Below are positions 3,429 through 22,522 of a stretch of 24,000 nucleotides of DNA, piece by piece. Source of the DNA: Bacteroidota bacterium (GTDB lineage: Bacteria > Bacteroidota > Ignavibacteria > Ignavibacteriales > Ignavibacteriaceae). Where the stretch lies: contig JADFPP010000020.1 of NCBI GenBank assembly GCA_022562275.1, forward strand, positions 15,770-39,769. Direction: 5' to 3'. The notes beneath the pieces are model-generated. The model was not told the origin of the DNA. It ran no database searches and worked only from the letters and a program-made list of their open reading frames with translations. Numbering within the stretch: the first letter of the stretch is position 1; each line of letters begins with the position of its first letter. Made by a program: the position numbers and the translations under genes.

Positions 3429-3551
3429 AGTAGGATTATTAAGAATATTTAGAAACTCAGAATCCAAATGTCAGCCAGTAGGAATCTTGTTTTCTGAATT
3501 TAGAATTAATAAGAGGTTCAATTTTAATGAATAAAAACAAAGAAGCTTCAT

Positions 3552-4901: not shown

Positions 4902-4955
4902 TTCGCCATTCAGCAGGAATCCTGTTAACTAAACTGTGAACGATTGCATAAGGAA

Positions 4956-4980
4956 TAAAAAGATTCTTTTTGAATGACAG
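4956..4980. promoter_or_regulatory. Conserved 25-nt box, copy 2 (TAAAAAGATTCTTTTTGAATGACAG), about 50 nt upstream of preA
   Basis: 22 of 25 positions are identical to 3404-3428 and it sits in an intergenic position. Function unknown. Confidence 0.4.
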
Positions 4981-5026
4981 TAATTATTTACAACGAAATT
5001 AAAATTTATAATGAATGAGGAAATAA

Positions 5027-6346: not shown

Positions 6347-6382
6347 AATTTACTTATCAATAATTTTATTGTTTATGAATTG

Positions 6383-6402
6383 CCACGACTTTTAAGTCGT
6401 GG
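6383..6402. repeat. Short GC-rich hairpin element CCACGACT-TTTA-AGTCGTGG
   Basis: Perfect 8-bp stem. A near-identical copy lies at 8003-8022. It is flanked by GAATTG motifs, as is the hairpin at 8063-8082. Confidence 0.7.
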
Positions 6403-6555
6403 GTAAATTGAATTGCTTCCTAAAAGAGTAAACCGTTTCTCCGAACGAGTCCTTTGGACAACGGTTTTAAGACTTAGTGGTTATAAGTGAAAACTAAAAG
6501 TATATCATACAAGAATTTAATAAGTATTATTACTAAAAAATAATATGGTGAAACT

Positions 6556-7944
6556 ATGTCAACATTAATAAAAAACGGTCGCATTATTACTGCGGAACAG
6601 GATTATATAGCAGACATCTACATCGAAAAAGATAAAGTAACACTAATTGGGGAGAACTTAAAAAATCAAGCCGATAAAGTAATTGATGCAAAAAACAAAT
6701 ACGTAATTCCCGGAGGCATTGATGTTCACACTCATCTTGATATGCCGTTCGGAGGAACAACCTCGATTGATGATTTTGAATCCGGAACAAAAGCCGCTGC
6801 ATTTGGCGGTACGACGTGCCTTATAGATTTTGCAATTCAGGCAAAGGGAACACGAATTAGAGATGCGCTTGATATTTGGTGGGAAAAAGCTCAAGGTAAA
6901 GCCACTATTGATTATGGACTGCATATGATTATAACTGACCTGCCGGATGCGCATATGGAGGACATGAGTGATATGGTTAATGAAGGTGTAACAAGTTTTA
7001 AACTCTTTATGGCTTATCCCGATGTGCTGATGGTAGATGATGCAACTATTTATAAGACTATGAAACATACATCAAAAACAGGTGCACTGGTTTGTATGCA
7101 TGCTGAAAACGGAAGTGTAATAGATCTTATTGTGCAGAAAGCACTTGCCGAAGGAAAAACAGCACCAATTTATCATGCACTTACCCGCCCAACTACTGCT
7201 GAGGGCGAAGCTGTGAACAGATCAATTGCTCTCGCTGAAATGGCTGGAGCCCCCGTATACATTGTTCACCTATCATCAAATGATGCACTTGAGAAAGTTG
7301 CCGAAGCAAGAGACAGGGGCTTGCCTGTTTATGCAGAAACTTGTCCACAGTATCTTTTTCTTTCTTTGGATGATATGGGCAAAGACGGCTTTGAAGATGC
7401 CAAACTTGTATTCACTCCGCCGCTGCGGGAAAAATGGCATCAGGATAAGTTGTGGGCAGGACTTCAAAAAAATACTTTGCAGATAGTTTCAACAGATCAT
7501 TGTCCGTTCTGTTATAAAGAGCAGAAAGAACTTGGCATTGATGATTTCACAAAAATTCCAAATGGGGGACCGGGTATTGAACATCGTTTGCAATTACTTT
7601 TTGAAGGTGGCGTAAACGAAGGAAGATTTTCAGTAAACAGATGGGTTGAGCTAATTTCAACTTCCCCGGCAAAAATGTTTGGGCTATATCCACGCAAAGG
7701 TACTATTGCCGTTGGTTCCGATGCCGATATTGTTATCTGGGATCCGGAATTCGAGCACACTATATCTGTTCATTCGCATCATATGCGCGTAGACTATTCA
7801 ATGTTTGAAGGAAAGAAAATAAAAGGTAATGCTGAGACAGTACTTTCCCGCGGTGAAGTAATTGTAGAAAATAAAAAATTCCTGGGTAAAACCGGAAGAG
7901 GAAATTTTTTGAAGAGAGATGCTTACGCCGGTGCGTGGGATTAA
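6556..7944 (+). CDS. dht: dihydropyrimidinase / D-hydantoinase
   Basis: GGIDVHTHLDMPFGGT metal-binding motif, FKLFMAY (carbamylated Lys region), the VSTDHCPF Asp motif and GSDADIVIWDP. These match cyclic amidohydrolases of the dihydropyrimidinase family. Confidence 0.9.
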   Translation: MSTLIKNGRIITAEQDYIADIYIEKDKVTLIGENLKNQADKVIDAKNKYVIPGGIDVHTHLDMPFGGTTSIDDFESGTKAAAFGGTTCLIDFAIQAKGTRIRDALDIWWEKAQGKATIDYGLHMIITDLPDAHMEDMSDMVNEGVTSFKLFMAYPDVLMVDDATIYKTMKHTSKTGALVCMHAENGSVIDLIVQKALAEGKTAPIYHALTRPTTAEGEAVNRSIALAEMAGAPVYIVHLSSNDALEKVAEARDRGLPVYAETCPQYLFLSLDDMGKDGFEDAKLVFTPPLREKWHQDKLWAGLQKNTLQIVSTDHCPFCYKEQKELGIDDFTKIPNGGPGIEHRLQLLFEGGVNEGRFSVNRWVELISTSPAKMFGLYPRKGTIAVGSDADIVIWDPEFEHTISVHSHHMRVDYSMFEGKKIKGNAETVLSRGEVIVENKKFLGKTGRGNFLKRDAYAGAWD

Positions 7945-8170: not shown

Positions 8171-9607
8171 ATGCAAATGAATAGCTTTATTGATACTGAA
8201 CTTGTAGAAACTGACATTACTTCCATTGCAGACCAAAAATTAATTAATAGAGATTTATCTCCTACGAAAGTTTCAGAACGCTCCTGGGGAACGTACGCCA
8301 TCGCTGCACTCTGGATTGGAATGAGTGTTAATATTCCAACTTATATGCTGGCAAGCGGATTAATTGCCGGAGGTATGAATTGGTGGCAGGCATTGATGAC
8401 AATAGGACTTGGCAATTTAATTGTATTGATCCCGATGGTTTTAAATGCACACGCCGGAACAAAATACGGTATTCCTTTCCCAGTTCTTGCACGAGCTTCA
8501 TTCGGAACAAAGGGTTCTAATATACCCGCACTCCTTCGCGCTATTGTTGCCTGCGGATGGTTTGGTATTCAAACGTGGATTGGTGGGCAGGCATTTAATT
8601 TGTTGATAATAATTATTTTTCCAGGGTGGGCTGTTTTTTCGTGGGGTCCGGGAATTGGCTTCATGCTTTTTTGGGCAATGAACGTTTACTTTATCGTTAA
8701 AGGAATTGAATCAATAAAATGGCTTGAATCTTACGGCGCACCGTTTTTACTTTTGGTTGGTTTGGGATTACTTACCTGGGCTTATGTTAATGCAGGCGGG
8801 TTTGGTCCAATTTTAAGCCAGCCAAGTAAATTTGCAACTACCGGTGAGTTTTGGAAATTTTTTATTCCATCATTAACCGGGATGGTTGGTTTTTGGGCAA
8901 CACTTTCACTAAACATTCCTGATTTCACGCGATATGCAAAAAGCCAGAAATCTCAAATGATTGGACAAGCATTGGGTTTACCTCCTGCGATGGTTTTATT
9001 TTCTTTTATCGGTATAGCTGTTACGTCTGCAACAGTAATTATTTTTGGAGAAGCAATTTGGGATCCGGTTGCCTTACTATCAAGGTTTGAAAGTCCTGTC
9101 GTCGTTGCAATATCTCTGGGATCTCTCATTCTAGCAACGCTAACTACAAACATTGCTGCAAATGTTGTATCACCGGCAAACGATTTTGCCAACTTATCAC
9201 CGAAGCATATCAATTTTGTAAAAGGCGGCTTGATTACTGCAGTACTGGGAATTGCGATGATGCCCTGGAAACTTCTTGCTGATTACAGCGCTTATATTTT
9301 TGGATGGCTTATCGGTTACTCAAGTTTTTTAGGACCGATAGCCGGTATTTTAATTTGCGATTATTTTATTATTAGGAAAAGAAATCTTAATGTAAAAGAT
9401 CTTTATGAAACTGAAGGCGTTTACACCTACAGAAAAGGATTTAATCTAAAAGCTGTGTATGCACTTGCTGCCGGAGTAATTGTAGCATTAATTGGATTAG
9501 TTATTCCTGAAGTAAGTTTTTTATATGATTATGCATGGTTTGTTGGCTTTGCAGTTGCGTTTTTACTTTACTGGGTATTGATGGGACGATTGAGAAAACA
9601 TAAGTGA
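8171..9607 (+). CDS. NCS1-family nucleobase:cation symporter (cytosine/uracil/hydantoin-type permease)
   Basis: About 12 predicted hydrophobic segments. The N-terminal NRDLSPT...ERSWG motif and overall layout are typical of NCS1 permeases. The pyrimidine substrate is inferred from context. Confidence 0.8.
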   Translation: MQMNSFIDTELVETDITSIADQKLINRDLSPTKVSERSWGTYAIAALWIGMSVNIPTYMLASGLIAGGMNWWQALMTIGLGNLIVLIPMVLNAHAGTKYGIPFPVLARASFGTKGSNIPALLRAIVACGWFGIQTWIGGQAFNLLIIIIFPGWAVFSWGPGIGFMLFWAMNVYFIVKGIESIKWLESYGAPFLLLVGLGLLTWAYVNAGGFGPILSQPSKFATTGEFWKFFIPSLTGMVGFWATLSLNIPDFTRYAKSQKSQMIGQALGLPPAMVLFSFIGIAVTSATVIIFGEAIWDPVALLSRFESPVVVAISLGSLILATLTTNIAANVVSPANDFANLSPKHINFVKGGLITAVLGIAMMPWKLLADYSAYIFGWLIGYSSFLGPIAGILICDYFIIRKRNLNVKDLYETEGVYTYRKGFNLKAVYALAAGVIVALIGLVIPEVSFLYDYAWFVGFAVAFLLYWVLMGRLRKHK

Positions 9608-9693: not shown

Positions 9694-9749
9694 GCAATTT
9701 AATTACGTTATTAAAAGTAATTAAAAACAGTTATCTGCAGCCTACCCTG
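9694..9749. repeat. Repeat unit D: weak, truncated copy of the sequence found 3' of the alpha-2-macroglobulin stop codon
   Basis: CAATTTAATTACGTTATTA (9695-9713) resembles CAATTAATCCCGTCATTA (12680-12697). TTATCTGCAGCCTACCCTG (9731-9749) resembles TTATCTGCTATCCTG (12728-12742) and GCAGCTACCCT (13744-13754). Similarity was judged by eye only. Confidence 0.35.
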
Positions 9750-9796
9750 ATTATGGTTAAAATTATACATTAATTAAGAAGTTAAGAGAAAACATT

Positions 9797-10261
9797 ATGG
9801 AAATCTTAAAATTTAATAAGGAGTTTGTTGAGCGTACGATAAATATTTTAAACTCATACAAAGGAAAATTTGAGTTTAGTAATCTTTTGAATTGTACCTT
9901 GGGACTAATAATTCTACCATATGAAAACATGGGTTCATCATCTTATTGGAAAAGCGAAATAGTAAGACTTGAGGACATTCCATCATTTACTATTAAATTA
10001 TTTGAACCGATAAAAAAAATGAAAAAAGGTAGAATAATACGCTATCCAAAGACAATAGGAGTATTGTTGAGGAAAATAAGAAATGGGCTTGCACATCAAA
10101 ATATCAAGCCTATAAATAAGAATAATGAATTTGTTGGTATTAAAATATTTAATAAGTATAAAAATAAGTTAGACCTTGATATAGAGTTTACAAGAGAAGA
10201 ACTATCTAATTTTGCTATTTATATCTCGAATAAATATTTAGAGGAGGATGCAAGTGGATAA
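9797..10261 (+). CDS. Small stand-alone HEPN-like protein with an Rx4H motif (putative RNase effector)
   Basis: LLRKIRNGLAHQNI contains R95-x4-H100 (nt 10079-10096). The protein is predicted to be mostly helical, with the motif in the C-terminal half as in HEPN domains. It sits 70 nt upstream of, and co-directional with, the KAP NTPase gene. Confidence 0.6.
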   Translation: MEILKFNKEFVERTINILNSYKGKFEFSNLLNCTLGLIILPYENMGSSSYWKSEIVRLEDIPSFTIKLFEPIKKMKKGRIIRYPKTIGVLLRKIRNGLAHQNIKPINKNNEFVGIKIFNKYKNKLDLDIEFTREELSNFAIYISNKYLEEDASG

Positions 10262-10331
10262 GGAAGTTAGGTATTTTGATTAAGGAATTGATTAGGTTCA
10301 GGGTAACAAGTAGCACTTTGAAAGTTGCAAA

Positions 10332-12575
10332 ATGAAACATGAATTAAAAACAACAACCACAGGATTTGATTCAGCTAAACTTAGTTATCAAGAAGACTAT
10401 TTAAATCGTTGGGATTTTGCTAAAGAAATATATGATCTTGCGATCACAACTCCCAAAGCATGGTCTGTAAGAATTAGTATTTACGGAAGCTGGGGAGAAG
10501 GTAAAAGTGTAGTTTTAAATTACATTCAACAAATTGCTAAAGCTGATAATCAAATTATACTTGAATTTAATCCCTGGGAGTACCAAACTGCTGAAGAACT
10601 TTGGGAATCGTTTGCATTATCTGTATATCAAACATTGAAGGATGCTGGAATTAAAATCAGATTATCAGATAAAATATGGTTCAACATTAAAGTTAAAATA
10701 AAAAGATTTTTTAGGAAATCGATTTTTCTTATTGAACCAATATCAAAGTTCAATGTTTACACTAAATCAGGTATACTAGTCTTAAAGAATTTTCTCCATT
10801 TTAACAAACGTATTCTAAATGAGTTACCTCAATATATGGGTGACAAGAGATTTATCATTCTAATAGATGACCTTGACAGATCTAATCCGGATATTATTCC
10901 ACAAATACTTTATTCATTAAAAGAATTATTAGATATCCCGGGCTTCTCATTTGTATTGGCATTTGATCCTGACGTCATTAACAATACTTTAAAGGCTCAT
11001 AATGTTAATTATGGAGAAAGTAAAGATTTCTTAGATAAGATAATTGATTTTCCGCGTTGGTTGCCAAAAGCTAACAATGATGAATTAAGTTACTTACTAA
11101 AAAAAGAAGGCGAGAAACATGTCAATTTTTTACCAGTTGGTTCATTAGAAAATGTATTCACACATTTACCTAAAAATCCAAGAAAGTTAAAACAATTTAT
11201 CAGATCATTGTTGAGTTTTAAAAATGAAACTGAGAGATACGATGTTGAAGAATTAAATTGGCATGTTCTACTATTAATAAACGTTCTAAAATTCAGTTAC
11301 CCATCTCTTACTGATTCGATAATTCAAAATCAAAAAATTTGGGATTCCATAACGACTGATAGATGGTTCGGAGAAAGAAGAGACAATAGTAATAGAAAGA
11401 AAGAGCATGAAGAAGAGTTATTAAAGATTATCAATGAAAAGAACCATAATAAAGATGATAGAGATAACATTCTTGAGATTATTAAAGATATTTCAAACTC
11501 AAATTACCCTATAAGCGTGGGTGCATTAGATTCTTATACTTACTTGACAGAAAAAAGATCTCCACTTACATGGAAAGAGTTTAATACTTTAATAAATAAT
11601 TTTGAAAAAGAATCTTCTATTTCGCTAATCGAAAATTTCATGGGGGAATATCCAAAACCCTCCACATTCTCCAGAGAGGATTTTCTTAAAGTGTTATTTC
11701 AAAAAACAGTTGAATATCAAAATTGGTCCCTAGGAATGGCTTCAGATACCCATCTTGAAGAGTACTTAATAAGTCACGTAAAAGATGCAAGTTTAGCGCT
11801 GAGATTATTAGCAACAATTAGTTTCGATATGGGAGGATTCGTTGGTAAAAAACCATTTCTAGATATCTCGAAATTCAGAATTCTCCATGAGATGATTACG
11901 AGATGGACTCACTTTACAATGCCAGACATTTATAAAAGAATAAGACAGGATGAGAAAGAATTATTGCTGAAAATCTGTCATGAATCTACAATTGATTTAA
12001 TCCTGATTATGAATTTTTTGCAGCCTTGGTTTCCATTTAGGACGGGAGTGTTTAATAGCATAGCTGAAGAGCAATTGAGTAAAGAACTAGGAAAAATATT
12101 GGAAGAGAGAATATCTTATCAACTGTTTGAAAATTTTAAAAAAGAAGGGTGGATAGAGTCTATTTTTATTAGAGATAAACACATAGTCGAACATTATATA
12201 TTGCTAAGAAAAAATAGCTGTTTCTGGACCTGCAACCTAAGGGATGAATTTTTTAAATTACTGAATAAATCGGCAAATAATACTAATCTTATTTTAAATA
12301 TGGCCTCTTTTGAGAGTTTGATTACCGTAGCGCTTTTAGATGAAAAGGACAAGTGGAGTGTAATACCGGATGCAGATTCAATACTACATGATCACGAACT
12401 TATTACAATAATTTGGGAAACTGCACTAAGAAAAAAAATAAATCCCAGAATGTTTAAATCACAAGAGGAATATAAAGATGATATTAGAGCCAAAACTGGT
12501 ATAGATTTACCGCTACCATCTTGGTGGGAAGAAATGAAGAATATGGTGGAGGATAGAAAACAATCCAAGGATTAG
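10332..12575 (+). CDS. KAP-family P-loop NTPase with a long uncharacterised C-terminal region
   Basis: Walker A is GSWGEGKS (aa 52-59, nt 10485-10508). Walker B is IILIDDLDR (DDLDR at nt 10866-10880), followed by VLAFDPDV and NPRKLKQFI. All are KAP NTPase signatures. The N-terminal DYLNRWDFAKEI lead-in is also typical. Confidence 0.8.
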   Translation: MKHELKTTTTGFDSAKLSYQEDYLNRWDFAKEIYDLAITTPKAWSVRISIYGSWGEGKSVVLNYIQQIAKADNQIILEFNPWEYQTAEELWESFALSVYQTLKDAGIKIRLSDKIWFNIKVKIKRFFRKSIFLIEPISKFNVYTKSGILVLKNFLHFNKRILNELPQYMGDKRFIILIDDLDRSNPDIIPQILYSLKELLDIPGFSFVLAFDPDVINNTLKAHNVNYGESKDFLDKIIDFPRWLPKANNDELSYLLKKEGEKHVNFLPVGSLENVFTHLPKNPRKLKQFIRSLLSFKNETERYDVEELNWHVLLLINVLKFSYPSLTDSIIQNQKIWDSITTDRWFGERRDNSNRKKEHEEELLKIINEKNHNKDDRDNILEIIKDISNSNYPISVGALDSYTYLTEKRSPLTWKEFNTLINNFEKESSISLIENFMGEYPKPSTFSREDFLKVLFQKTVEYQNWSLGMASDTHLEEYLISHVKDASLALRLLATISFDMGGFVGKKPFLDISKFRILHEMITRWTHFTMPDIYKRIRQDEKELLLKICHESTIDLILIMNFLQPWFPFRTGVFNSIAEEQLSKELGKILEERISYQLFENFKKEGWIESIFIRDKHIVEHYILLRKNSCFWTCNLRDEFFKLLNKSANNTNLILNMASFESLITVALLDEKDKWSVIPDADSILHDHELITIIWETALRKKINPRMFKSQEEYKDDIRAKTGIDLPLPSWWEEMKNMVEDRKQSKD

Positions 12576-12678
12576 AACAAATTTTTTATAGATTTATATC
12601 TATTGTGAGCACTGCATTCTGAAATATATATATTATCATATTGTAACAATGTGGACTTCTTAAGGGAATCTTATAAAC

Positions 12679-12841
12679 TCAATTAATCCCGTCATTATCG
12701 TATGCTTACTTTATCACTATGGCAATTTTATCTGCTATCCTGCCGTATCCGCGCACTAGCTGTATGCTTAGGCAAACTCTTTCCAAGAATGGGTCTTCTC
12801 AATTGCAGGTTTAGCGAGGATAGTAGTATAAACAATTATCT
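12679..12841. repeat. Repeat unit C, flank-derived part, with an internal ~90-nt insert
   Basis: TCAATTAATCCCGTCATTA...TTATCTGCTATCCTG aligns with 13691-13754 at the same ~55-nt spacing. Nt 12743-12830 is extra sequence bounded by the similar strings GCAATTTTATCTGCTATCC and ACAATTATCTCTATTC. Confidence 0.6.
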
Positions 12842-13010
12842 CTATTCAACTATTACTCTCACAACTTCCGAATGGCTTGTCCGGAGGGATCTTCGACAAA
12901 TTCAGGAGCGTACATTCTTTGCATTGTTGTAATACCGTTTGAGAATTCTCCTTTATGAGTTACAATTAGAGAATACTCAAATACATAAGTTCCTTTTGGA
13001 AGCCCGGTCT
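12842..13010 (-). pseudogene. Displaced 3'-terminal fragment (~50 codons) of an alpha-2-macroglobulin gene, copy C
   Basis: The reverse strand reads LPKGTYVFEYSLIVTHKGEFSNGITTMQRMYAPEF.., colinear with the live gene's C-terminus LPKGTYVFEYPLRVTHKGDFSNGITTMQCMYAPEF... A 17-nt insertion (12880-12896) shifts the last codons. Confidence 0.85.
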
Positions 13011-13025
13011 TTAAATTATTAATGT

Positions 13026-13280
13026 ATGAAACATTTTGTAAGACGATCTTATGATATTATATTTACTATAGTGGAAACTAAAGAATTAAAAAACAGAATT
13101 GATAAAAACAGTTTTTCGGTTTCATCTCTTTTTGAAAACTCCGACGAAAAGGAATATTGGCAATCCAAATCATCTTCAGAAAGGCTGGAAGCAGTAGAAA
13201 TACTTCGACAAAGAGTTTATGGCTACAATCCATTTACCACCCGACTTCAAAGAATTCTTTCAATTACTAAACTCACATAA
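13026..13280 (+). CDS. Small conserved hypothetical protein, putative partner/antitoxin of the downstream nucleotidyltransferase
   Basis: EKEYWQSKSSSERLEAVEILRQRVYGYNP..TTRLQRIL resembles small proteins I recall encoded upstream of minimal NTases. The start codon is uncertain (ATG 13026 or GTG near 13071). It overlaps the next gene by 62 nt. Confidence 0.5.
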   Translation: MKHFVRRSYDIIFTIVETKELKNRIDKNSFSVSSLFENSDEKEYWQSKSSSERLEAVEILRQRVYGYNPFTTRLQRILSITKLT

Positions 13281-13668
13281 GGTTCACTACTTAGTAATTG
13301 GCGGTTATGCAGTGGCATATCATGGTTATCCACGTGCCACCGGAGATATTGATATATGGATCACCACTAACCCGGATAATGCAAAAAAAATAGTTCAAGC
13401 AATAAAGGAGTTCGGCTTTGCTGATCCGGACATTTCTGAAGAAATTTTTCTAAAAGAGGATCAAGTAATTAGAATGGGAGTTCCTCCATTGAGAATAGAA
13501 TTATTAACCACAATATCAGGGGTTGATTTTAAATCTTGTTATGCTAACCGCATAGATGAAACTCTTGATGATGTCACAATAAGTTTCATAGGATTAGAGG
13601 ATCTAAAACAAAACAAGAAAGCCAGCGGAAGACATATAGACTTAAATGATTTGGAAAGGCTGCCTTAA
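13219..13668 (+). CDS. Minimal nucleotidyltransferase-fold protein (AbiEii/DUF6036-like)
   Basis: LVIGGYAVAYHGYPRATGDIDIW matches the hG[GS]-x(9-13)-DxD pol-beta-type NTase signature. The protein is 149 aa and sits in a two-gene layout. Confidence 0.6.
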   Translation: MATIHLPPDFKEFFQLLNSHKVHYLVIGGYAVAYHGYPRATGDIDIWITTNPDNAKKIVQAIKEFGFADPDISEEIFLKEDQVIRMGVPPLRIELLTTISGVDFKSCYANRIDETLDDVTISFIGLEDLKQNKKASGRHIDLNDLERLP

Positions 13669-13690
13669 AAAATAATGAGATAATAGGAAA

Positions 13691-13747
13691 TCAATTAATT
13701 CCATCTCTCCTGCTATTCCTATGCTATTGTTATAGGAATTTTAGCAG
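13691..13747. repeat. Repeat unit B, flank-derived part
   Basis: TCAATTAATTCCATCTCTCC...TTTTAGCAGCTACCCT aligns with 12679-12742 and with 14656-14715 (TCAATAAAAAACCCTCTCC...ACAGCTATCACT). It includes the AT-rich hairpin ATTCCTAT/ATAGGAAT (13715-13739). Confidence 0.6.
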
Positions 13748-13842
13748 CTACCCTCCAACTTTAACCCTTACCCCTTCCGAATGACTTGTCCGGAGGGATC
13801 TTCGACAAATTCAGGCGTATACATACACTGCATTGTTGTAAT
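13748..13842 (-). pseudogene. Displaced 3'-terminal fragment (~26 codons) of the alpha-2-macroglobulin gene, copy B
   Basis: Nt 13807-13842 differs from 14755-14790 at a single position out of 36. The reverse strand reads ITTMQCMYTPEF... It has the same 17-nt insertion (13789-13805) as copy C. Confidence 0.85.
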
Positions 13843-14008
13843 TCTCCTGAAACGGCAAGTAAACTAAAAAATTTCCTTTTTTTCTCAATCAGGATAAAAT
13901 TTCCTGTACGATTTTAAGGTAGATTTACTATATTTATTTTATGTTCTTTTCAATTTCGTTTTATAACCCATACTGAAATTAGAAAGGAAAGGAAGAGTAA
14001 ATTAATTA

Positions 14009-14308
14009 ATGGATATATTAAGCAAACATAAAGATGAATTGAATAAATTCTGTGAGACCAACAGGATAATAAAACTTTCTCTATTCGGTTCGTATGCTAA
14101 GAATAGTTATGATGAAGATAGTGATATTGACCTGTTAGTTGAGTTTGAAGATGACGCTACACCAGGATACCTTGTATTAGCACGAATGGAAAATCAATTA
14201 ACAGATCTTTTCGGAATAAAAACTGATCTCAGAACTGCAAATGAATTGAGCAGGTATTTCCGTGAGCAAATTGTAAAAGAAGCGATAGTCCAGTATGCAG
14301 CCGAATGA
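14009..14308 (+). CDS. mntA: MNT-type nucleotidyltransferase antitoxin
   Basis: LFGSYAKNSYDEDSDIDLLVEF minimal NTase motif. The protein is 99 aa and overlaps the downstream HepT gene by 14 nt. Confidence 0.85.
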   Translation: MDILSKHKDELNKFCETNRIIKLSLFGSYAKNSYDEDSDIDLLVEFEDDATPGYLVLARMENQLTDLFGIKTDLRTANELSRYFREQIVKEAIVQYAAE

Positions 14309-14627
14309 CAGAATCCGAATAAAGCATATGATTGATGCTGCTGAAGAAGCAATCTCATTTGCTGAGGGGAAATATAGAGAAGCTTTAGACAGTGAAAGAA
14401 TGTTAGTTCTTTCTTTAGTTAAAGAAATTGAAATTATCGGTGAAGCTGCAGTAAAAGTTTCAGTGGAAGTAAAAGAAATAAATTCTCAAGTTCCCTGGGA
14501 TGATATAACCGGAATGCGTAATCATCTTGTTCATGGTTATTTTGATGTGGATTTAGATATGCTTTGGAATACCGTTAAACTAGATCTGCCTATGCTGTTA
14601 ATTAAGTTGAAGAAAATTATTTCTTAG
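14295..14627 (+). CDS. hepT: HepT (DUF86) HEPN-domain toxin
   Basis: GMRNHLVHGYFDVD contains the Rx4H HEPN motif. The protein is 110 aa and shows the canonical MNT-HepT gene order and overlap. Confidence 0.85.
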   Translation: MQPNDRIRIKHMIDAAEEAISFAEGKYREALDSERMLVLSLVKEIEIIGEAAVKVSVEVKEINSQVPWDDITGMRNHLVHGYFDVDLDMLWNTVKLDLPMLLIKLKKIIS

Positions 14628-14659
14628 TAACTAACTTCCTAATCATTTCTTCGTATTCA

Positions 14660-14696
14660 ATAAAAAACCCTCTCCATTTTTTTAATGAAGAGGGTT
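14660..14696 (-). terminator. Rho-independent terminator of the alpha-2-macroglobulin gene, possibly bidirectional
   Basis: AACCCTCT (14666-14673) pairs with AGAGGGTT (14689-14696), with extra inner pairs. On the minus strand the stem is followed by a T-run (complement of the A-run at 14662-14667), 20 nt after the stop codon. Confidence 0.7.
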
Positions 14697-14715
14697 GATG
14701 AATCAACAGCTATCA

Positions 14716-17700
14716 CTACTCAACCTTCACTCTCACCCCTTCAGAATGACTTGCAAATTCAGGCGCATACATACACTGCATTGTTGTAATACCGTTAGAG
14801 AAATCACCTTTGTGGGTTACTCTCAATGGATATTCAAATACATACGTTCCTTTTGGCAACCTGTCCATAAAGAAGTTTGTTGCAGCATCGCGTGTGTTTT
14901 CGTAATACCACAATCCATCCTGGTACTTATGAGTTGAAAGGACATTAATAGGTTCAAACCCGGCAGCACGCATATCTTTCAGGTGAACAAATTCCATATC
15001 TCTATCTACTCTTATTTCAATCCTTACTTTTATCATATCACCCGGTTTAAGTTTTGTATCATCTGTAACAGGAGTTATTTTCTTTCCGGTTTCACTATCA
15101 AGTTCAAGGAATAACTGTTTCTTAATTTTCAGCGGAGTTTCACTTGGTGTTATCTTATCGAGCTGTTCATAATACTGCCAGTAAAGTGATCCCCACGCAA
15201 CAACATTATTATTATTAGTTACGGTAACTTCTCCCATTTCAGGTTTTATCTCTTCACCTTTCCAGGAAGTTTTAAAATAACCGGTTCCCGCTTCAATGTG
15301 GATTTCAGGTCGCCGGACTCCGGAGAGTCCGTCGGACTCTTCGAGATTGTTATAAAGATCAATTAACTGACCGCCAACTTTTATATCAGGCAGCTTTGAA
15401 TCGGCAAGCCAGTTTGTACCTCTTAAAAGAAGTGCATAACAAGCTTCGGCAGTTGCTTTGGTTGTTTTCCAATCCTGTACTTGTTTTTGTTTTAACAGCC
15501 ATACCTTCAATAGATCAACAGATTCCTGGTCTTTAACAATCTCATCTACCGCTTCAATAAGCAGCGCCTGCGTTTCTATCGGCGCCTGGTACCACCACCA
15601 TCCCCATTCTTCTTTAAAGTACATTCCCATCTCATCATTAAATACTGCATTCTCAATTATCGATTTGATTATAGCTTTTGCAGTCTTTGCATCGTACAAT
15701 CTGTAAAGTGCAAGTGCTATCATCCCCTGCATATACTTGTTGTTACTAAGCCAGTATGTCTGTGCCTGCCATTTCCAGTAATCGAATGCTTCTTTATGTT
15801 TTTCATCAACAGGAATATCAAGGTAGTAGCTTCTTCCGTAAAGATACTGTGCCTGTATGTAGCCGATATGTTTCTTCTTCATGTTTACACCGCGCCTCTT
15901 AAGGCGTTCATAATCTTCGTGCATTCTTACATCGGTGTAGAGAACCGCCTTCGTTAGCATGTCCCAAGTGCTGCTGTTCTCTCTTATATCTTTTATCCCA
16001 AGCCGTTCAAGATGTCCCATTCCAACTACAATATATTGAGTAATAAACCTGTTTTCGCGGAGTCCGGGAAACCAGGGCCATCCGCCGTTTGAGTACTGGT
16101 TTTCTCTCAGTTGCCGTTCGGCTCTTTCCAATTCATTTGCCATTCTGGTAAGATCGAAGAGCAAACCAACTCTGCGTTTCCTTTCCGATTCATCCTGTGC
16201 ATCAAGAACCCAGGGAGTTTCTTCGAGCAGTGCGTACTTTAATTCCTGGTTCTTTTCAAGGTTTGAAATAAGTGCATCTTTATCTATTTCTTTCCACGAT
16301 TCAAAAACCTTTTTGATCTTGGGGTTTGAGTTTGCAATAAAAGTTGCAATGCTGTTTGCATAAAAACGGTTAAAGATCTGCTCACTGCACTCATAAGGAA
16401 ATTCCATCATATACGGCAGCGCCTGTATTGCATACCATGCGGGATTTGCAGTGAACTCAAGTGTGAGATTATAATTCTGTAAAGTTGAAGAAGTATTGTT
16501 CATCAACTTTTCGAGTATGAAAGTTTTTGTCTGATTTCCTTTTACAGGAAGCGGAAGTGTTTCTGTAACCAGCATTCTGTTAACTAATACCGGAAGTGCA
16601 TTCTCCTCGCCGTCAGAAAACTTCCCTGATTTTGCAATCACCCTGTAAACAATCGCATCAACTTTACCCAGAGGAACTTTTAATCTCCAACTTAATCCTT
16701 CGCTCATTTTTTTATCAACAGAGAATGATTTTATGTTATCCGTGTTCTCAAAAAGATGATCAACTGGTTTCATTGTAAATGCATCGAAGAGCTGTAGCGT
16801 TGCAGAACCGGAAAGTGAATGATCTGAAAGATTGCTTACCTTTGCAGTAAAGTATATTTCATCGCTTTCTCTTAAGAATCTCGGCGGATTTGGTTGAATC
16901 ATCAAATCTTTTTGTGTAACTGTTTCATTATAAATTATTCCGCTCTTAAGATCTTTTGTATGAGCAAAGCCCATAAACTTCCATCGGGTTAATGCTTCCG
17001 GCACAGTGAATGAGATTACAATTTCACCCTGCTCATTTGTTTTTAAATCAGGATAGAAGAAAGCAGTTTCATTCAGATTTTTTCTAATTGAAACTCCTTC
17101 AAATGAAGTTTGAGAGATTTTATCTTGATCTCCATTCAGTTTTTTTCTCTCTTCATCTTTTCCAAGCTTTGATGAGGTTATATCACCTTCTTTTTCTTCC
17201 ATAACTACACCTGATTGCAAGGACAGCTCATCAGAAACACTCCGGGTAGGCATCTTATAAAATCTGCCATCACTGTAACCATAGCCATAAAAATAAAAAC
17301 CAAAGGTGTTGATGTACGGATAATAGAAATGCTGCCTTGAAACATAAATATTCCACCCCTCTTCATAAATTTTTGAACTGAGAATCTGGAAGGAATTATC
17401 TGTTGTCCAATTCAATCTGGAGTAGTAATAAGGATAAATATTAAAGCCCCAATAGTTTGCTGCAAAAGCATCCAGAGATGCATCATACATCGAAGCAAGT
17501 AGTTCGGCAGCTATTGCATCTCCGTTTGGTCCGGTTATTTTTAACTTCCATTCTTCGTCAGTTCCGGGAAGAATTTTATTTCTGAAAGTTTCAAATGTAA
17601 TATTAAGATGTTTGTTCGTCCACGGAACCGAAATGACTTTTGTTAAAGTATGGTTTGCATTATTGATAGTTAGAGTTACATGCACGACCACGTTTCCGCG

Positions 17701-20700
17701 GTAATCTTCTTTAATTGGAATTTCAATTTTCTTTTGTTCATCATCCAAAGTAATCCATTCTTTCTTAATTATCTTTCCATCGTATTCAAGTTCGTAAAGT
17801 GCTTTCACATCTTCTTCAGCGGAACCGATGTAAAGTTTTACGATTTCTCCCGGCTCATAGTTTTTTGGTTCAATATAAATCCAGTTCGCCTCTCTTAATG
17901 GCATTTTATTAGATTCAGCATTAAACAAAGTAAAATATTTTATAAGCTCAACAGGAGTTCCGTTTTTATCTTTTGTTTTAAGTGTAACAACATACTTGCC
18001 GGGATCCCAATCATACTGATCTTTAAAAACTATGAATGAACTATCTGTTGTTGTAAAACTTTTTTCAAATACTTTCTTATCTTTTCTCCAGTTAAAGAAC
18101 TGATCTTCTTCATTATAAACATCGTGAGCAAAGCTTTCATAAAAATCTTCTTTAGTTAAAAAGAATTTATCCGGCTTTTGCCACAACCTGTTTCTGAATA
18201 TTCGTGATGGAGATTTAAGTTTAAATATATCAACATAAACTTTTGCAGATTCAAATTGCCCGTTTAGATTTGTAGTTGAAACCGAATAATTAACAACTGA
18301 ATCGCTTTTAATTATTTCCGGCAGATTAATATTTACAACCAAAGCAACATAACCCGCACTTACATAAGTTTGTGCAGAATGTGTTTCACCGGTTACATCA
18401 ATAACATCAGCATAAATAGTATAATTAAAAACAGGATTTGTTTCCCTTGGAATTGAAAGATCAGGAATAAGATTAAATTCAACTTTGAATTTGCCTTCCT
18501 TATCAGTTTTGGTAACACCGTTTGTGATTTCCATTTTAGTGTTATTTCCCCAGTACCAGTTATAATAACCTCTGAACCAATAGTAGTAATAAGGGAATGA
18601 AACATTTCGTACAACACGATATTTAACTTCAACATCGTTTAAGTTTGCACCCGAATAAGTTTTTGCAAAACCTTCTGCAGTTACTTTATCATTTAAAGAA
18701 TAGCTTCCTTTTATGGGTTTAAACTTTACCTCGAATTTAGGACGTTTGTATTCTTCAACCCTGAAGTATTGAGAACCGACCTCATTCATTATATAATACT
18801 GTCCGCCAATCTTACCAAAGGGAATTGTAAACTGTCCGTTAAAAGTTCCGTATTCGTTTGTAGTTAAAGTAACATCGGAAATTTTCTGGCTGTTTGCATC
18901 ATAAAAAGTAACAGTTGTTTTTTTATCAGTAATTATTTCGTGATCTTTCTTACCATCTGTTTTAATCATCAATCCTTTAAAGTAAACTAACTGCCCTGGT
19001 CTGTAAATTGCTCTATCAAGATAAAAGAAAGTTGTTATTCGCTTTGTGGAATTATCTTTGTAGTAATAGGAGTAGTAATTCTGTGATTCAAAACGATCAT
19101 CATCATCAGTAAAAACAACTTTGTAGTTATTGTATTTATTTTCCTCTTTCGTGAACTTAAAACTACCTTCGCTGTTTGTCTTTCCACTTGCTACTTTGAA
19201 GAATTGATATTCTCTATCATCAGGTACATATTTTTGCACATAAATTTCAACATTAATTTTTGAGAGAGGATGTCCTGATTCCCTATGCAATGCGTAGAAT
19301 TGAATCACATTCTTTCCCATATCTCTTCTTATATAACTGATATTCGAAACCCACGTTTTACCGTAACCAACAGCATTTTTTATGTATGTAAAATTTTTAT
19401 CTGTTGCAACAAGAATCAGATACCGACCTATTGGCAGTGCAGGCATTTTTATTTCCACACTATGATCCTGGTAGTCTTTGTCAGCAGGAAGATTAAGCGA
19501 CCACTCCCTTGTTGGCTTCTGCTTAACATAAAATTGAATACGCTTCTGTGCATTTAAATTCTTTTCTTTTTTCTCCAATTTATCATTCCAGGGAATGATT
19601 CGTAAATAAATCCGATTAACATTCGTAAAAGATATGAGTGCTCGAAATGGTTGATCGGGAATATTACCGTATTCAGTTTGAAATCTTAAATTCTTGCGTA
19701 GTATCTCATTCTGCAGCCATCGGCACTCCTGTGCACCAGATTTATCGGGATATTTTTCAAAAGCAGTGCTGCAAATTTCAAGAGCTTTTTTAATCTCCCA
19801 TTTGTGTTTATCGGATACAGAAGAATTATATTTTTTTCCTTCATCGTAAAAATATTTTGCTTTATTAAAAGAGATGAGAGTAGAATAAGGAACATCGCTG
19901 TACTGATCTTCCATTTTGATAATTGCTAAAATATATAAGCTGTCTTTTTCTGTGTGAACACTGTTTCCTCTTACAAAATTTAATCGTGCAAGATCAACAT
20001 CTATCAGCGCATCTTTTTCATCATCATTAAGATGGAATGCAATTAACTTTTGAAATAGTTGAATCGCATAAAACTTTAGTGAAAGAGAATCCTTGGCGGT
20101 AAAATTGATATCAACAAAATTTTTCGCTGAAGAAAAATCATCAGGACTGTTTAATTCAAATTTGTAAACAGGATCAGTTACCGAAGCTTCATCATTGATA
20201 TAAAAAGTGAGGGCTGTTTGCGCAAGCAAATCGAACAATGTCGGGCGAAGGTATGCCTGCCCCGAGTTGCTGTAATAAAGAATATCTTCAAATTCTTTTA
20301 TGGAAATCAATTTTAAGCTGTCACTCTGTTCAAGCGATGCCTGGTATAGTTTTACAATTTCTCTTATAAGATGGGGAAGATCCCATGTTTGAAAACCTGC
20401 CTCGCCGGTAGGCAGGTCATTATTATCAAAGTTCACTGTTTCGGTTCTTTGCTGAAACCTGTAACGGTTGTTCTGGTAATACTGCCAGTAAATATTTGCG
20501 AGAATGGATTTTAGAATTGCATTTGCAGGGAAGGATGTTGTGTTTATTTCATCTTTAACACCATTTAATATTTTTACGTGGCTATCCTCTTCAGTGTAGT
20601 TTGTGAATTTAAGTTTATAGAAAAGTGATTTTATGATCTGTGACTGGTTGTCTTCTTCTTTAGCCGTCTTATATATTTCTTCAACAATTTCCAGCGCCGA

Positions 20701-20883
20701 ACGTGTGAGCCCTTCATTTACAAGGGAATCTACTTTGTGCCACGCGGCTTTATAATCATCACCAAAATTATATTGTATCATTTCAGTATGATTAAATATT
20801 TTTATACCGGGAACAAGTCCGGTGAATGAATAAAATAGAACTGCAATGGGGATAAAAAGGAGGAATCTATTTATATTTTTCAT
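14716..20883 (-). CDS. Alpha-2-macroglobulin family protein (thioester-containing, secreted or envelope-anchored)
   Basis: 2055 aa with an N-terminal hydrophobic signal/anchor (FLLFIPIAVLFYSF). The thioester motif FPYECSEQ has CSEQ encoded at nt 16378-16389. The repeated beta-rich middle is consistent with MG domains, followed by a helical TED-like region and a C-terminal receptor-binding-like domain. Confidence 0.85.
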   Translation of the reverse strand: MKNINRFLLFIPIAVLFYSFTGLVPGIKIFNHTEMIQYNFGDDYKAAWHKVDSLVNEGLTRSALEIVEEIYKTAKEEDNQSQIIKSLFYKLKFTNYTEEDSHVKILNGVKDEINTTSFPANAILKSILANIYWQYYQNNRYRFQQRTETVNFDNNDLPTGEAGFQTWDLPHLIREIVKLYQASLEQSDSLKLISIKEFEDILYYSNSGQAYLRPTLFDLLAQTALTFYINDEASVTDPVYKFELNSPDDFSSAKNFVDINFTAKDSLSLKFYAIQLFQKLIAFHLNDDEKDALIDVDLARLNFVRGNSVHTEKDSLYILAIIKMEDQYSDVPYSTLISFNKAKYFYDEGKKYNSSVSDKHKWEIKKALEICSTAFEKYPDKSGAQECRWLQNEILRKNLRFQTEYGNIPDQPFRALISFTNVNRIYLRIIPWNDKLEKKEKNLNAQKRIQFYVKQKPTREWSLNLPADKDYQDHSVEIKMPALPIGRYLILVATDKNFTYIKNAVGYGKTWVSNISYIRRDMGKNVIQFYALHRESGHPLSKINVEIYVQKYVPDDREYQFFKVASGKTNSEGSFKFTKEENKYNNYKVVFTDDDDRFESQNYYSYYYKDNSTKRITTFFYLDRAIYRPGQLVYFKGLMIKTDGKKDHEIITDKKTTVTFYDANSQKISDVTLTTNEYGTFNGQFTIPFGKIGGQYYIMNEVGSQYFRVEEYKRPKFEVKFKPIKGSYSLNDKVTAEGFAKTYSGANLNDVEVKYRVVRNVSFPYYYYWFRGYYNWYWGNNTKMEITNGVTKTDKEGKFKVEFNLIPDLSIPRETNPVFNYTIYADVIDVTGETHSAQTYVSAGYVALVVNINLPEIIKSDSVVNYSVSTTNLNGQFESAKVYVDIFKLKSPSRIFRNRLWQKPDKFFLTKEDFYESFAHDVYNEEDQFFNWRKDKKVFEKSFTTTDSSFIVFKDQYDWDPGKYVVTLKTKDKNGTPVELIKYFTLFNAESNKMPLREANWIYIEPKNYEPGEIVKLYIGSAEEDVKALYELEYDGKIIKKEWITLDDEQKKIEIPIKEDYRGNVVVHVTLTINNANHTLTKVISVPWTNKHLNITFETFRNKILPGTDEEWKLKITGPNGDAIAAELLASMYDASLDAFAANYWGFNIYPYYYSRLNWTTDNSFQILSSKIYEEGWNIYVSRQHFYYPYINTFGFYFYGYGYSDGRFYKMPTRSVSDELSLQSGVVMEEKEGDITSSKLGKDEERKKLNGDQDKISQTSFEGVSIRKNLNETAFFYPDLKTNEQGEIVISFTVPEALTRWKFMGFAHTKDLKSGIIYNETVTQKDLMIQPNPPRFLRESDEIYFTAKVSNLSDHSLSGSATLQLFDAFTMKPVDHLFENTDNIKSFSVDKKMSEGLSWRLKVPLGKVDAIVYRVIAKSGKFSDGEENALPVLVNRMLVTETLPLPVKGNQTKTFILEKLMNNTSSTLQNYNLTLEFTANPAWYAIQALPYMMEFPYECSEQIFNRFYANSIATFIANSNPKIKKVFESWKEIDKDALISNLEKNQELKYALLEETPWVLDAQDESERKRRVGLLFDLTRMANELERAERQLRENQYSNGGWPWFPGLRENRFITQYIVVGMGHLERLGIKDIRENSSTWDMLTKAVLYTDVRMHEDYERLKRRGVNMKKKHIGYIQAQYLYGRSYYLDIPVDEKHKEAFDYWKWQAQTYWLSNNKYMQGMIALALYRLYDAKTAKAIIKSIIENAVFNDEMGMYFKEEWGWWWYQAPIETQALLIEAVDEIVKDQESVDLLKVWLLKQKQVQDWKTTKATAEACYALLLRGTNWLADSKLPDIKVGGQLIDLYNNLEESDGLSGVRRPEIHIEAGTGYFKTSWKGEEIKPEMGEVTVTNNNNVVAWGSLYWQYYEQLDKITPSETPLKIKKQLFLELDSETGKKITPVTDDTKLKPGDMIKVRIEIRVDRDMEFVHLKDMRAAGFEPINVLSTHKYQDGLWYYENTRDAATNFFMDRLPKGTYVFEYPLRVTHKGDFSNGITTMQCMYAPEFASHSEGVRVKVE

Positions 20884-22219: not shown

Positions 22220-22522
22220 ATGAAAACCAGCAATGAAATATTAAAGCTTATTAAAGATAATTATAATTATCTCTCAACTGAATTTGGAGTAGAAAAAATT
22301 GGATTATTTGGTTCTACTGCAAAAGGAACCGCTACAAAACATAGCGATGTTGATATTCTTATAGAATTTAACAAACCAATTGGTTTTAAGTTTGTAAAAT
22401 TGGTTGTGTACCTTGAAGAGCTTTTGGGAAAAAAGGTGGATGTAATAACAAAAGATGGACTTAAGAACATAAGAATTAAAAATGTTGCAGAGAATATAAA
22501 GAAGAGCCTTGTTTATGTCTAA
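22220..22522 (+). CDS. mntA: MNT-type nucleotidyltransferase antitoxin (second, divergent copy)
   Basis: LFGSTAKGTATKHSDVDILIEF NTase motif. It overlaps the downstream HepT gene by 14 nt. Confidence 0.85.
   Translation: MKTSNEILKLIKDNYNYLSTEFGVEKIGLFGSTAKGTATKHSDVDILIEFNKPIGFKFVKLVVYLEELLGKKVDVITKDGLKNIRIKNVAENIKKSLVYV

Follow-up and report, generated by a model that had tools for sequence, protein, structure and literature searches.

Hotspots flanked by core genes and remodelled by homologous recombination, as presented in the abstract and matched passages of PMC5635113, are among the closest known systems to the locus described here, with core defence hotspots (PMC10250203) and the defence islands of E. 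coli (PMC10121019) as related systems. The locus lies in a 24,000-nt stretch of contig JADFPP010000020.1 from an Ignavibacteriaceae bacterium (hereafter the window), between the convergent 3' ends of an alpha-2-macroglobulin (A2M) gene and a cytosine/purine permease gene. Site-specific recombinases drive tandem accretion at the 3' ends of genes and tRNAs, as for ICESt1/ICESt3 and the integrase-less CIMEs at fda, and tycheposons are reportedly elements with partial-tRNA repeats. Integron attC sites form imperfect hairpins in single-stranded DNA at the end of each cassette, Xer-dependent dif/pdif modules are bounded by 28-bp XerC/XerD sites in inverted orientation, and circular DNA carrying a chromosomal segment gives rise to the insertion-duplication (Campbell-type) products of pneumococcal and Bacillus genetics. 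We propose, at a probability of roughly 0.6, that the A2M/permease junction is a hotspot for accessory genes in which no integrase takes part and which DNA from related Ignavibacteriaceae remodels by homologous recombination.

The A2M gene end and its displaced copies

The two conserved flanks of the island, and the elements of the live A2M end that bear on its history, are the following:

14716-20883, minus strand: A2M gene, 2055 aa, conserved, its 3' end being the landing pad (ORF call; Pfam MG2/A2M/bMG10 on an identical product)
14702-14871, minus strand: unit A, the live A2M 3' end, comprising the last ~50 codons, the stop (14716-14718) and ~14 nt of flank (alignment and translation)
14751-14756, no strand: TTG/CAA palindrome in the live A2M end; its site, between 14753 and 14754, is 38 nt away from the end of the gene if the stop is counted
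14666-14696, minus strand: terminator hairpin AACCCTCTTCATT..GGAGAGGGTT 3' of the live A2M end
8171-9607, plus strand: cytosine/purine permease, the conserved distal flank

In addition to the live end (A, 14702-14871), copies of the A2M 3' end recur in the same orientation at 13745-13842 (B) and 12828-13015 (C), much as the earlier note had reported. Local alignments score 75 for A-B, 124 for A-C and 109 for B-C, where shuffles average 17-19 and reach 32 at most, and the minus-strand translations of B and C read as the A2M C-terminus, from ITTMQCMY in the former and from LPKGTYVFEY in the latter. Units A, B and C are thus real, and B and C are displaced pseudo-3'-ends of A2M with a tripartite layout:

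13806-13842, minus strand: left arm of unit B, a 37-nt piece of A2M (ITTMQCMYTPEF) that matches the live end at 36/37 positions
13789-13805, minus strand: 17-nt insertion TCGAAGATCCCTCCGGA in unit B
13748-13788, minus strand: right arm of unit B, the old A2M end (..SHSEGVRVKVGG*)
13710-13747, no strand: hairpin CTGCTATTCCTAT..ATAGGAATTTTAGCAG 3' of the old end B, read from the sequence and present also 3' of the live end in strain L112
12897-13015, minus strand: left arm of unit C, ~119 nt of A2M sequence (LPKGTYVFEY..APEF)
12880-12896, minus strand: 17-nt insertion in unit C, the same as that of B
12842-12879, minus strand: right arm of unit C, an older A2M end (..SHSEVVRVIVE*)

Relative to the live end, the 17 nt shared by B and C (the tag), which the earlier note had overlooked, are inserted at the centre of TTG/CAA, at the same 38-nt distance from the gene end with the stop counted, and their deletion restores the A2M frame. 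Other parts of the repeat description did not survive realignment. The proposed fourth copy, unit D at 9694-9749, aligns to A, B and C with scores of 17-20, the level of the shuffle mean, and the TCAAT..CTCTCC.. flanks, taken previously as repeated halves of the units, give flank-only alignments with p = 0.06-0.96. As similarity reaches only ~9-14 nt beyond the A2M stop codon, the true repeats start 75, 77 and 253 nt after the stop of the preceding cassette, not 22-104 nt as had been stated.

The earlier gene calls were right, in that Pfam scans recover HEPN+KAP, small protein+NTase and MNT+HepT, all on the plus strand:

14009-14627, plus strand: cassette 1, an MNT (14009-14308) and HepT (14295-14627) toxin-antitoxin pair (ORF and domain calls)
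13026-13668, plus strand: cassette 2, an 84-aa ORF (13026-13280) and a 149-aa DUF6036-like nucleotidyltransferase (13219-13668), the DUF6036-type assignment being a weak match
9797-12575, plus strand: cassette 3, a HEPN protein (pEK499_p136, 9797-10261) and a KAP-family NTPase (10332-12575)

Cassette 2 also sits beside a C-type pseudo-end in L096, L083 and L093; the left arm of unit C accompanies it in other genomes, and homology of the right arm to the same cassette in these three ends 15-22 nt right of the 17-mer. Cassette 3 has no bounding repeat on its permease side, and with unit D at background the HEPN+KAP pair can no longer be described as a repeat-bounded cassette. A second MNT-HepT pair in the window (22220-22850) was inserted in place of ~55 nt of a DUF2809 gene end, and no tail duplication was found there.

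Strain comparisons at the A2M/permease junction

Cassette 1 is missing from the near-identical strains L111, L112 and L113, and also from L127. Compared with the window, the first three are 99.6-99.8% identical up to 13788, the exact edge of the 17-mer, and identity resumes at 14707; the TTG/CAA position of the live end, where the pseudo-ends have their insertion, is also where identity to strains without cassette 1 breaks. The live A2M end of these strains (..VKVGG* plus hairpin) and the right part of unit B are the same sequence (100% identity), which shows that part of B to be the resident, old A2M end. Divergence from L112 extends well into the gene:

14754-15307, minus strand: recombination tract covering the final ~550 nt of A2M, with 93% identity to L112 against 99.3-99.9% in the remainder of the gene; contiguous with cassette 1

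Between the window and L112 we count 51 mismatches in 14712-15307 and only ~16 in the next 4.6 kb (identity 0.93 in 14754-15307 vs. 0.999 in 15308-16000); the left breakpoint of the divergent tract lies at 15307-15548. Because the presence or absence of cassette 1 is contiguous with this tract, the polymorphism points to an exchange through the gene by homologous recombination and not to a small site-specific insertion.

Among near-identical strains the polymorphic block is MNT-HepT, which adjoins A2M, and the terminator hairpin that follows the live end (14666-14696) is of the type seen 3' of A2M in other Ignavibacteria lineages, unlike that of the empty permease junction. The strain comparisons support a serial build-up at the gene end, as the earlier note had envisaged, with a replacement end being supplied, the old end displaced and the newest block nearest the gene; a terminator comes with the replacement end. 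As to polarity, gain of cassette 1 in the window lineage vs. its loss in the L112 lineage, close relatives split 18:20, and a search for a nearest-neighbour switch near the A2M end among species-level relatives gave no resolution at ~10% divergence.

Relatives hold both empty sites and other cargo, the two states for which the earlier note had suggested looking. L001 and L002, whose A2M is 93-94% identical, have an empty site with convergent A2M and permease stops ~100 nt apart and a different terminator, and L096, L066 and L013 carry other cargo at the junction. In L096, A2M is followed by a TonB_C gene, the same NTase cassette and a C-type pseudo-end, which gives way directly to the empty-site flank and then the permease. 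Further strains combine stretches of unequal divergence: L127 is 99.4% identical in the island and 92.6% in A2M; L133 is 99.4% identical from 13604 on and 90.6% in the 84-aa ORF of cassette 2 and the C arm, with a different downstream neighbour; and L135 shows 98.6% identity to one side of the second MNT-HepT pair and 88% to the other. Breakpoints in other strains fall elsewhere, with mismatches gathered in tracts, which also cluster in the permease 3' end (mismatch clusters at 9140-9430). These comparisons show the strains to be mosaic at the island.

Such variation bears on the notion of a duplication fixed long ago, without any turnover of cassettes. The TonB_C arrays of L089 and L091 look vertically inherited, as this notion would have it; the TonB_C cassette in L089, L091 and L096 has a divergence similar to that of A2M, so that cassette boundaries there are uninformative. 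Empty sites, the strain-level cassette-1 polymorphism, differing cargo and mosaic strains already refute it, and we grant it next to no credence. The junction instead has what is expected of a homologous-recombination hotspot, namely alternative and empty states, tracts in the flanking genes linked to cargo change, and no recombinase in the island. In a test of generality on 423 ORF ends, A2M accounted for six hits, a further two were tandem paralogues, and pyrC in L013 was the one true case outside A2M.

Under homologous recombination, the exchanged block, whether incoming or outgoing, would be a foreign chromosome stretch from a related Ignavibacteriaceae, consisting of the donor's last few hundred A2M bases, the stop and terminator, cargo such as MNT-HepT, and a short A2M-end piece. 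The left crossover would fall inside the conserved A2M gene and the right exchange in short A2M-end homology, a shared older cassette or the permease. Since the incoming DNA would bring a complete gene end, A2M would stay intact and the resident end would be left behind downstream as a pseudo-end, with repeated rounds stacking further blocks and the most recent one adjoining A2M. We infer that the tagged pseudo-end serves as a portable right-hand homology arm, that the first gene-end duplications arose from rare illegitimate or insertion-duplication events (a literature search on illegitimate recombination yielded nothing relevant), and that the tag goes back to a past insertion which recombination or short-patch gene conversion has carried from one pseudo-end to another. 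By dividing the direct repeat into halves of 37 and 38 nt, the tag may also make cassettes more stable. Some observations count against homologous recombination: in its plain form it does not predict an identical tag at an identical position and absent from live ends, the cassette-1 exchange has little homology to use on its right-hand side (38 nt, or 75 nt interrupted by the tag), and pseudo-end left edges cluster at -74 and -44.

The 17-nt tag and competing mechanisms

More than 20 related contigs carry the tag, always in pseudo-ends and in no live gene; within ~1.3 Mb of related loci, every true match lies in an A2M pseudo-end, and a search of phages and proviruses found no match in viral contigs. 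It occupies the same position in pseudo-ends with at least 5 different left edges, which range from -29 to -150 and whose clusters at -74 and -44, beside unrelated sequences, hint at preferred break points. The tag creates a -35-like TCGACA, and we considered the units as promoters; promoter-like hits in the region number 27 against a shuffle expectation of 26.4, and the idea was dropped. 

The absence of an integrase from the window, stated in the earlier note, is borne out by Pfam scans in and around the island and by Pfam calls on identical contigs, which place no integrase or recombinase in the 24 kb and only metabolic, toxin-antitoxin and defence genes. Nor is there a tyrosine or serine recombinase among the inspected cargo ORFs of related arrays (the larger ones scanned with Pfam, the others read), which encode Y1 (IS200-like) transposases, one IS110, TonB_C, DUF5131, DUF4238 and Panacea toxin-antitoxin proteins.

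These data weigh on the site-specific insertion that the earlier note had likened the array to. In its fullest form, small circles whose attP mimics the A2M end would integrate serially at TTG/CAA by means of a tyrosine or serine recombinase whose gene lies elsewhere in the genome, with the 17-mer in the attP/attR arm. Confinement of the 17-mer to the displaced copy suits such a scheme, where attR would comprise element arm, core and old end and attL the intact gene; homology between the same cassettes across genomes ends ~0-22 nt right of the 17-mer, arrays of n cassettes have n tagged ends (in the window and L080), and weak inverted repeats (6/9 positions, 7-nt spacers), read from the sequence and not significant, flank the tag. 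Against it, the presence or absence of cassette 1 carries ~550 nt of foreign A2M upstream of the site, and in place of an identical att core at the live site and the repeats we find a live site lacking the 17-mer and repeats whose left edges differ. The same C-type pseudo-end exists with the tag in L093 and without it in L133, a degenerate tag in L007 (7/17 mismatches) suggests no constraint, the viral contigs have no match to the tag, and neither the window nor the inspected cargo ORFs of related arrays hold a recombinase. Units A, B and C were also tried as attC sites; on neither strand do they fold better than shuffled sequence (z from -0.32 to +1.42), and no IntI gene with attI lies beside the array within 24 kb. 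We therefore regard site-specific integration as unlikely. Quite unlikely, too, is that the tagged pseudo-end is the working site of an unrecognised cassette-capture system, for which a recombinase or endonuclease encoded elsewhere may use the end of a conserved protein-coding gene as acceptor, like the attI of integrons, and write the same 17 nt into each displaced end, with the -74 and -44 edges as cut sites.

The Y1 transposases suggest another origin, in which REP hairpins and their transposases (REP/RAYT) made the duplications, the -74 edge and a 17-nt scar, and other cargo came later. Y1_Tnp genes with GTAG-type REP hairpins lie between the live end and a pseudo-end in L010, L015, L080, L092 and L098, members of four different REP families lie no more than 2-4 nt from the -74 edge, in L097 the tag and GGACAAGTC run on into a complete REP, and by eye the CAAGTC and TTACAA of A2M resemble REP arm and tail sequences. 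The array of the window itself, however, has no REP or Y1_Tnp, and TCGAAGATCCCTC was not found beside REPs elsewhere in ~1.5 Mb of related sequence. To our knowledge, IS200/IS605-type transposition produces no target duplication, and we know of no REP/RAYT element that duplicates target sequence. This origin is decidedly improbable.

Finally, break-induced "homing" would have an endonuclease cut a TTGCAA-centred site in A2M, repair from a cargo-bearing template co-convert A2M, and the 17-mer confer immunity. The insertion point is indeed the centre of the 6-bp palindrome, and the co-converted tract adjoins it on the side where homology is long. Every pseudo-end with the tag has its palindrome disrupted by it, and the tag was apparently copied between B and C, which share a 31-nt identical block around it. 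The arrays nevertheless have no associated endonuclease gene, tag-less pseudo-ends persist (L008, L022 and L133), and on present data such homing is indistinguishable from ordinary recombination; we consider it very improbable.

Homologous recombination with related DNA thus remains our preferred account, and the locus offers a base-level before-and-after view of a defence and toxin-antitoxin island growing without a mobile-element enzyme. Each pseudo-end left behind would be a dated "growth ring", and the gene survives as the incoming DNA brings a copy of its own of the adjacent gene's end. Genome-wide searches for pseudo-ends could find further islands built by recombination and order their acquisitions. 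The tag, present in pseudo-ends of many uncultured Ignavibacteria and in no live gene, is a lineage marker or a hint of an undescribed mechanism.

Comparison with known systems

Several known systems share part of this architecture. GTAG-hairpin REP pairs with Y1 transposases occur as cargo at the same site in L010, L080 and L092, whereas the window is devoid of them. Integron arrays likewise consist of small, promoter-poor cassettes in one direction, many of them toxin-antitoxin modules, and grow at one end; here, there is no IntI/attI, and the repeats are coding-sequence remnants that do not fold (z about 0). With regard to Xer dif/pdif sites, the units are direct and not inverted repeats, and around the tag only the weak 6/9 inverted repeats were read from the sequence. 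As in insertion-duplication, cargo lies between two direct copies of a target segment, which in L047 have the same extent in both (-115 to +24), but cassette 1 is no simple single crossover, with a duplicated arm of 37 nt and a co-transferred A2M tract of ~550 nt.

Accretion by ICEs, CIMEs and tycheposons is similar in that direct repeats of a gene's 3' end separate the cargo, the gene is made whole again by the incoming DNA and has the latest block beside it, and cargo-only units have no integrase. It differs in that no integrase was found here in the window or in the examined cargo, the repeat edges vary, hundreds of bases of the target gene are co-transferred, and the insertion in the repeats is absent from the live site. 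The hotspots remodelled by homologous recombination, as represented by the abstract and matched passages of PMC5635113, correspond in several respects: variable toxin-antitoxin and defence cargo lies between conserved genes, the window holds no integrase or transposase, empty and alternative states exist, and recombination tracts mark both flanking genes at the A2M and permease 3' ends. What would set the present locus apart from the hotspots presented there is that one of the two exchanges takes place within a displaced and very short copy of the end of the flanking gene, so that successive events leave an array of pseudo-ends, and that these share a 17-nt tag. The junction would accordingly be a known kind of recombination-driven hotspot with an unusual twist, tagged pseudo-ends that may act as portable homology.

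The array and its repeated gene ends

Between the stop of the alpha-2-macroglobulin (A2M) gene and a convergent permease gene, the window (35.5% G+C; nearest kin, metagenome-assembled Ignavibacteriaceae) holds three plus-strand blocks together with direct copies of the A2M 3' end, the latter delimited by local alignment.

Features of the A2M/permease junction
8171-9607, convergent to A2M: cytosine/purine permease
plus strand: HEPN (pEK499_p136) and KAP-family NTPase (cassette 3)
12828-13015: unit C, direct copy of the A2M 3' end
12880-12896: 17-nt tag in unit C, TCGAAGATCCCTCCGGA on the A2M strand
plus strand: 84-aa ORF and weak DUF6036-type nucleotidyltransferase (NTase; cassette 2)
13745-13842: unit B, direct copy of the A2M 3' end
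13789-13805: 17-nt tag in unit B, TCGAAGATCCCTCCGGA on the A2M strand
plus strand: MNT and HepT (cassette 1)
14702-14871: unit A, the live copy of the A2M 3' end
14716-20883, minus strand: A2M gene (ORF call)

The repeated A2M ends described in the earlier note are real: A, B and C align with scores of 75-124 versus shuffle means of 17-19 and a shuffle maximum of 32, the minus-strand translations of B and C give the A2M C-terminus, and the similarity stops 9-14 nt beyond the stop codons. A fourth copy proposed there, unit D, scores at the shuffle mean, and the "flank" halves it had assigned to the units are mutually dissimilar (p = 0.06-0.96). At least 10 independent assemblies carry the array at 99.75-99.98% identity, which rules out an assembly artefact as its source. 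Since single-strand folding of the units is no better than that of shuffles, they are not attC-like. No tyrosine or serine recombinase is found within the 24-kb window or in those cargo ORFs of related arrays that were inspected; scanned cargo comprises Y1_Tnp, IS110, TonB_C, DUF5131 with its GMT-wHTH partner, DUF4238 and a Panacea TA pair.

Outside the array, the 24 kb carry genes for RraB, DUF2809, a deaminase, a ferredoxin and a second MNT-HepT pair, as well as a cluster for reductive pyrimidine degradation. The cluster (21-7944: CN hydrolase, aminotransferase, PreT/PreA-like dehydrogenase subunits, dihydropyrimidinase) is an ordinary one and adjoins the permease upstream, hence the conservation of that flank. 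The second MNT-HepT pair (100 aa + 113 aa; 22220-22850) lies between the DUF2809 and cytidine deaminase genes, which abut in L135 and L093, two related loci that lack it; its insertion replaced ~55 nt of the DUF2809 end without duplication. A short motif, AA(A/C)TCAATTAAT(T/C)CC(A/G)TC, is common to 13688-13705 and 12676-12693 (15/18 identical, p about 0.06), 20 nt past the NTase stop and 100 nt past the KAP stop, and L093/L096 have a related sequence after their NTase stop. Sigma-70-like promoter matches on the plus strand at 13802-13829 and 12939-12966 are directed from units B and C to the cassette genes, the -35-like TCGACA in unit B arising from the tag; such matches are as numerous in the region as in shuffles, so these promoters are only a hint.

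Strains without MNT-HepT and further mosaicism

Near-identical strains were retrieved with the exact HepT and NTase proteins of the window, and three of them, L111, L112 and L113, are without MNT-HepT. Up to 13788, the edge of the 17-mer in unit B, their identity to the window is 99.2-99.8%; the match resumes at 14707. The two strain types differ by a 965-nt block (13789-14753) that runs from the tag and the 37-nt left arm through a spacer, MNT-HepT and a terminator to a new gene end of 38 nt. Their live A2M end is untagged, with ..CTTG running directly into CAAATT.., and its last 41 nt, with the hairpin after them, recur unchanged in the right part of unit B, which is therefore the former live A2M end. 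Mismatches between the strain types number 51 in 14712-15307 versus ~16 in the next 4.6 kb (identity 0.93 in 14754-15307 and 0.999 in 15308-16000), and the exchange therefore took in approximately the last 550-800 nt of A2M, with breakpoints between 15307 and 15548 on the left and at the tag or just right of it on the right. This footprint is the one left when a foreign chromosomal segment replaces its homologous counterpart; a small circle inserted at a fixed site would not leave such an A2M tract. The serial growth at the gene end envisaged earlier, with incoming DNA bringing the replacement end, is borne out, and its designation as site-specific is unsupported. As to polarity, outgroups split 18:20 on whether the window lineage gained the block or the L112 lineage lost it, and L127 is equally far from both alleles; gain and loss alike call for homologous recombination running through the A2M end.

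Mosaicism extends to other relatives. L127 is 99.4% identical to the window across the island and 92.6% in A2M; L133 retains 99.4% identity from 13604 through A2M and past it, and only 90.6% in the 84-aa ORF and C arm, with DUF4238 downstream in place of KAP/HEPN/permease; in L135, devoid of the second MNT-HepT pair, identity falls from 98.6% to 88% across the site of the missing pair. Between-strain mismatches are clustered, including at the permease 3' end.

The NTase gene (149 aa) has a ~323-nt internal deletion (13281-13603) in many otherwise near-identical strains (L101, L105, L107; probably also L103, L106, L118), and nearly the same deletion is found in L127, L133 and L083/L093. A short CTAAA(A)C repeat is common to its breakpoints, and the deletion is either a single allele that recombination has spread or an event that recurred. 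Split A2M genes (1062+905 aa; 1576+478 aa) in L101/L131 and L133 and split KAP NTPase genes (111+579 aa) in L111 and L128 may be pseudogenes or assembly errors.

Empty sites, cargo and the 17-nt tag in relatives

A scan of relatives with one genome per species gave 79 loci. Two (L001, L002), whose A2M C-terminal 450 aa are 93-94% identical, have an empty site, with A2M and permease stops ~100 nt apart and their own terminator. In others a partial A2M end recurs 120-900 nt downstream of the live end, and the cargo between the two differs:

Cargo between live and displaced A2M ends
L010, L015: Y1/IS200-like transposases with REP hairpins
L006, L022: small secreted protein
L008: two REP hairpins only
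L025 (Chitinophagales): RelE/ParE-like pair
L047 (Chitinophagales): 231-aa protein

An IS110-family (DEDD) transposase gene likewise lies between the live end and a tagged displaced copy, or pseudo-end, in L085 (1201-2277). In L096 a C-type pseudo-end is directly followed by a flank of the empty-site type, and the right part of the pseudo-end is therefore resident sequence. In L083/L093 the cassette comes immediately after genes for DUF2809, the deaminase and the ferredoxin, whose window counterparts are located on the far side of A2M, and A2M itself appears lost; RraB is missing too, with the NTase cassette and tagged pseudo-end kept. In L087/L095 the ~14 kb upstream of a tagged end contain no A2M. 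Among 423 ORF ends in related loci searched for a downstream copy, A2M has one six times and only one other gene does: in L013, MNT-HepT (1842-2694) lies between the live dihydroorotase end and a decayed ~135-nt copy of it, with the architecture and relative orientation of cassette 1 at a different target gene and without the tag.

The tag is extra in B and C relative to the live end. It splits the palindrome TTGCAA at its exact centre, with GAATTTG on one side and CAAG on the other, at a distance of 38 nt from the end of the gene (counting the stop codon). Its removal restores the A2M frames, ..EFASHSEGVRVKVGG* in B and ..EFASHSEVVRVIVE* in C. It is absent from all 26 Ignavibacteria A2M C-termini compared, which are highly conserved, and its true matches in ~1.3 Mb of related loci fall in A2M pseudo-ends only. 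An exact-pattern scan of metagenome contigs gave 19 further contigs, the tagged copy being the displaced end in every one and the live end visible 450-1600 nt upstream in seven; none was found in viral contigs. Degenerate tags occur in L007 (7/17 changes), L010 and the second copy of L080 (1/17 each), and C-type pseudo-ends are tagged in the window, L083, L093 and L096 and untagged in L133. B and C share a rare C variant of the tag and a 31-nt identical block within repeats otherwise 77% identical, which suggests short-patch conversion between pseudo-ends.

Left edges of tagged ends vary (about -150, -122, -93, -82, -74 and -44); the left arm stays with the cargo on its left, and the sequence right of the tag varies from genome to genome. 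Pseudo-end edges cluster at two positions, -44 and -74, the latter beside REPs of four different families and two spacers unrelated to each other. Several GTAG-type REP hairpin families (for example GTAGCGACAAGTCGCGACTTGTCGC, GGGACAGGTCTCGACCTGTCCCTAC, GTAGCACAGATTAGCAATCTGTGCTAC and AAAGATGACATCTTT) occur, often as inverted pairs around Y1 (IS200-like, RAYT-like) transposase genes, at 2330-2450 in L008 and just after the A2M stop in L010, L014, L015, L026, L080, L092 and L094. The hairpins lie within 10-20 nt of the live stop, and the -74 edge of pseudo-ends is 2-4 nt away from them. In L097 (196-245, A2M-strand orientation) the tag plus GGACAAGTC leads straight into the remainder of a REP hairpin (..TCTCGACCTGTCCCTACAA); either a REP has inserted here in a tagged pseudo-end, or the junction is a clue to the tag being a scar related to REPs.

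Proposed remodelling of the junction

Two reasons may be proposed for the persistence of the tag: a live gene carrying it would have its conserved C-terminus thrown out of frame, whereas a pseudo-end would have its direct repeat divided into halves of 37 and 38 nt, which would slow loop-out loss of cargo. The origin and spread of the tag, the left-edge clustering and the first gene-end duplication leave a minority possibility that REP/RAYT activity, a nuclease or some site-specific enzyme takes part. On the best-supported reading, homologous recombination at conserved flanks remodels the A2M/permease junction as an integrase-free hotspot. What lies downstream of A2M varies by lineage (permease, a conserved 211-aa gene or dihydroorotase), and a short displaced A2M end could serve as far-side homology, each exchange through it leaving one more pseudo-end. 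Remodelling of integrase-free hotspots through conserved flanks is a published mechanism (PMC5635113); what would set the A2M junction apart from it is the source of the far-side homology.
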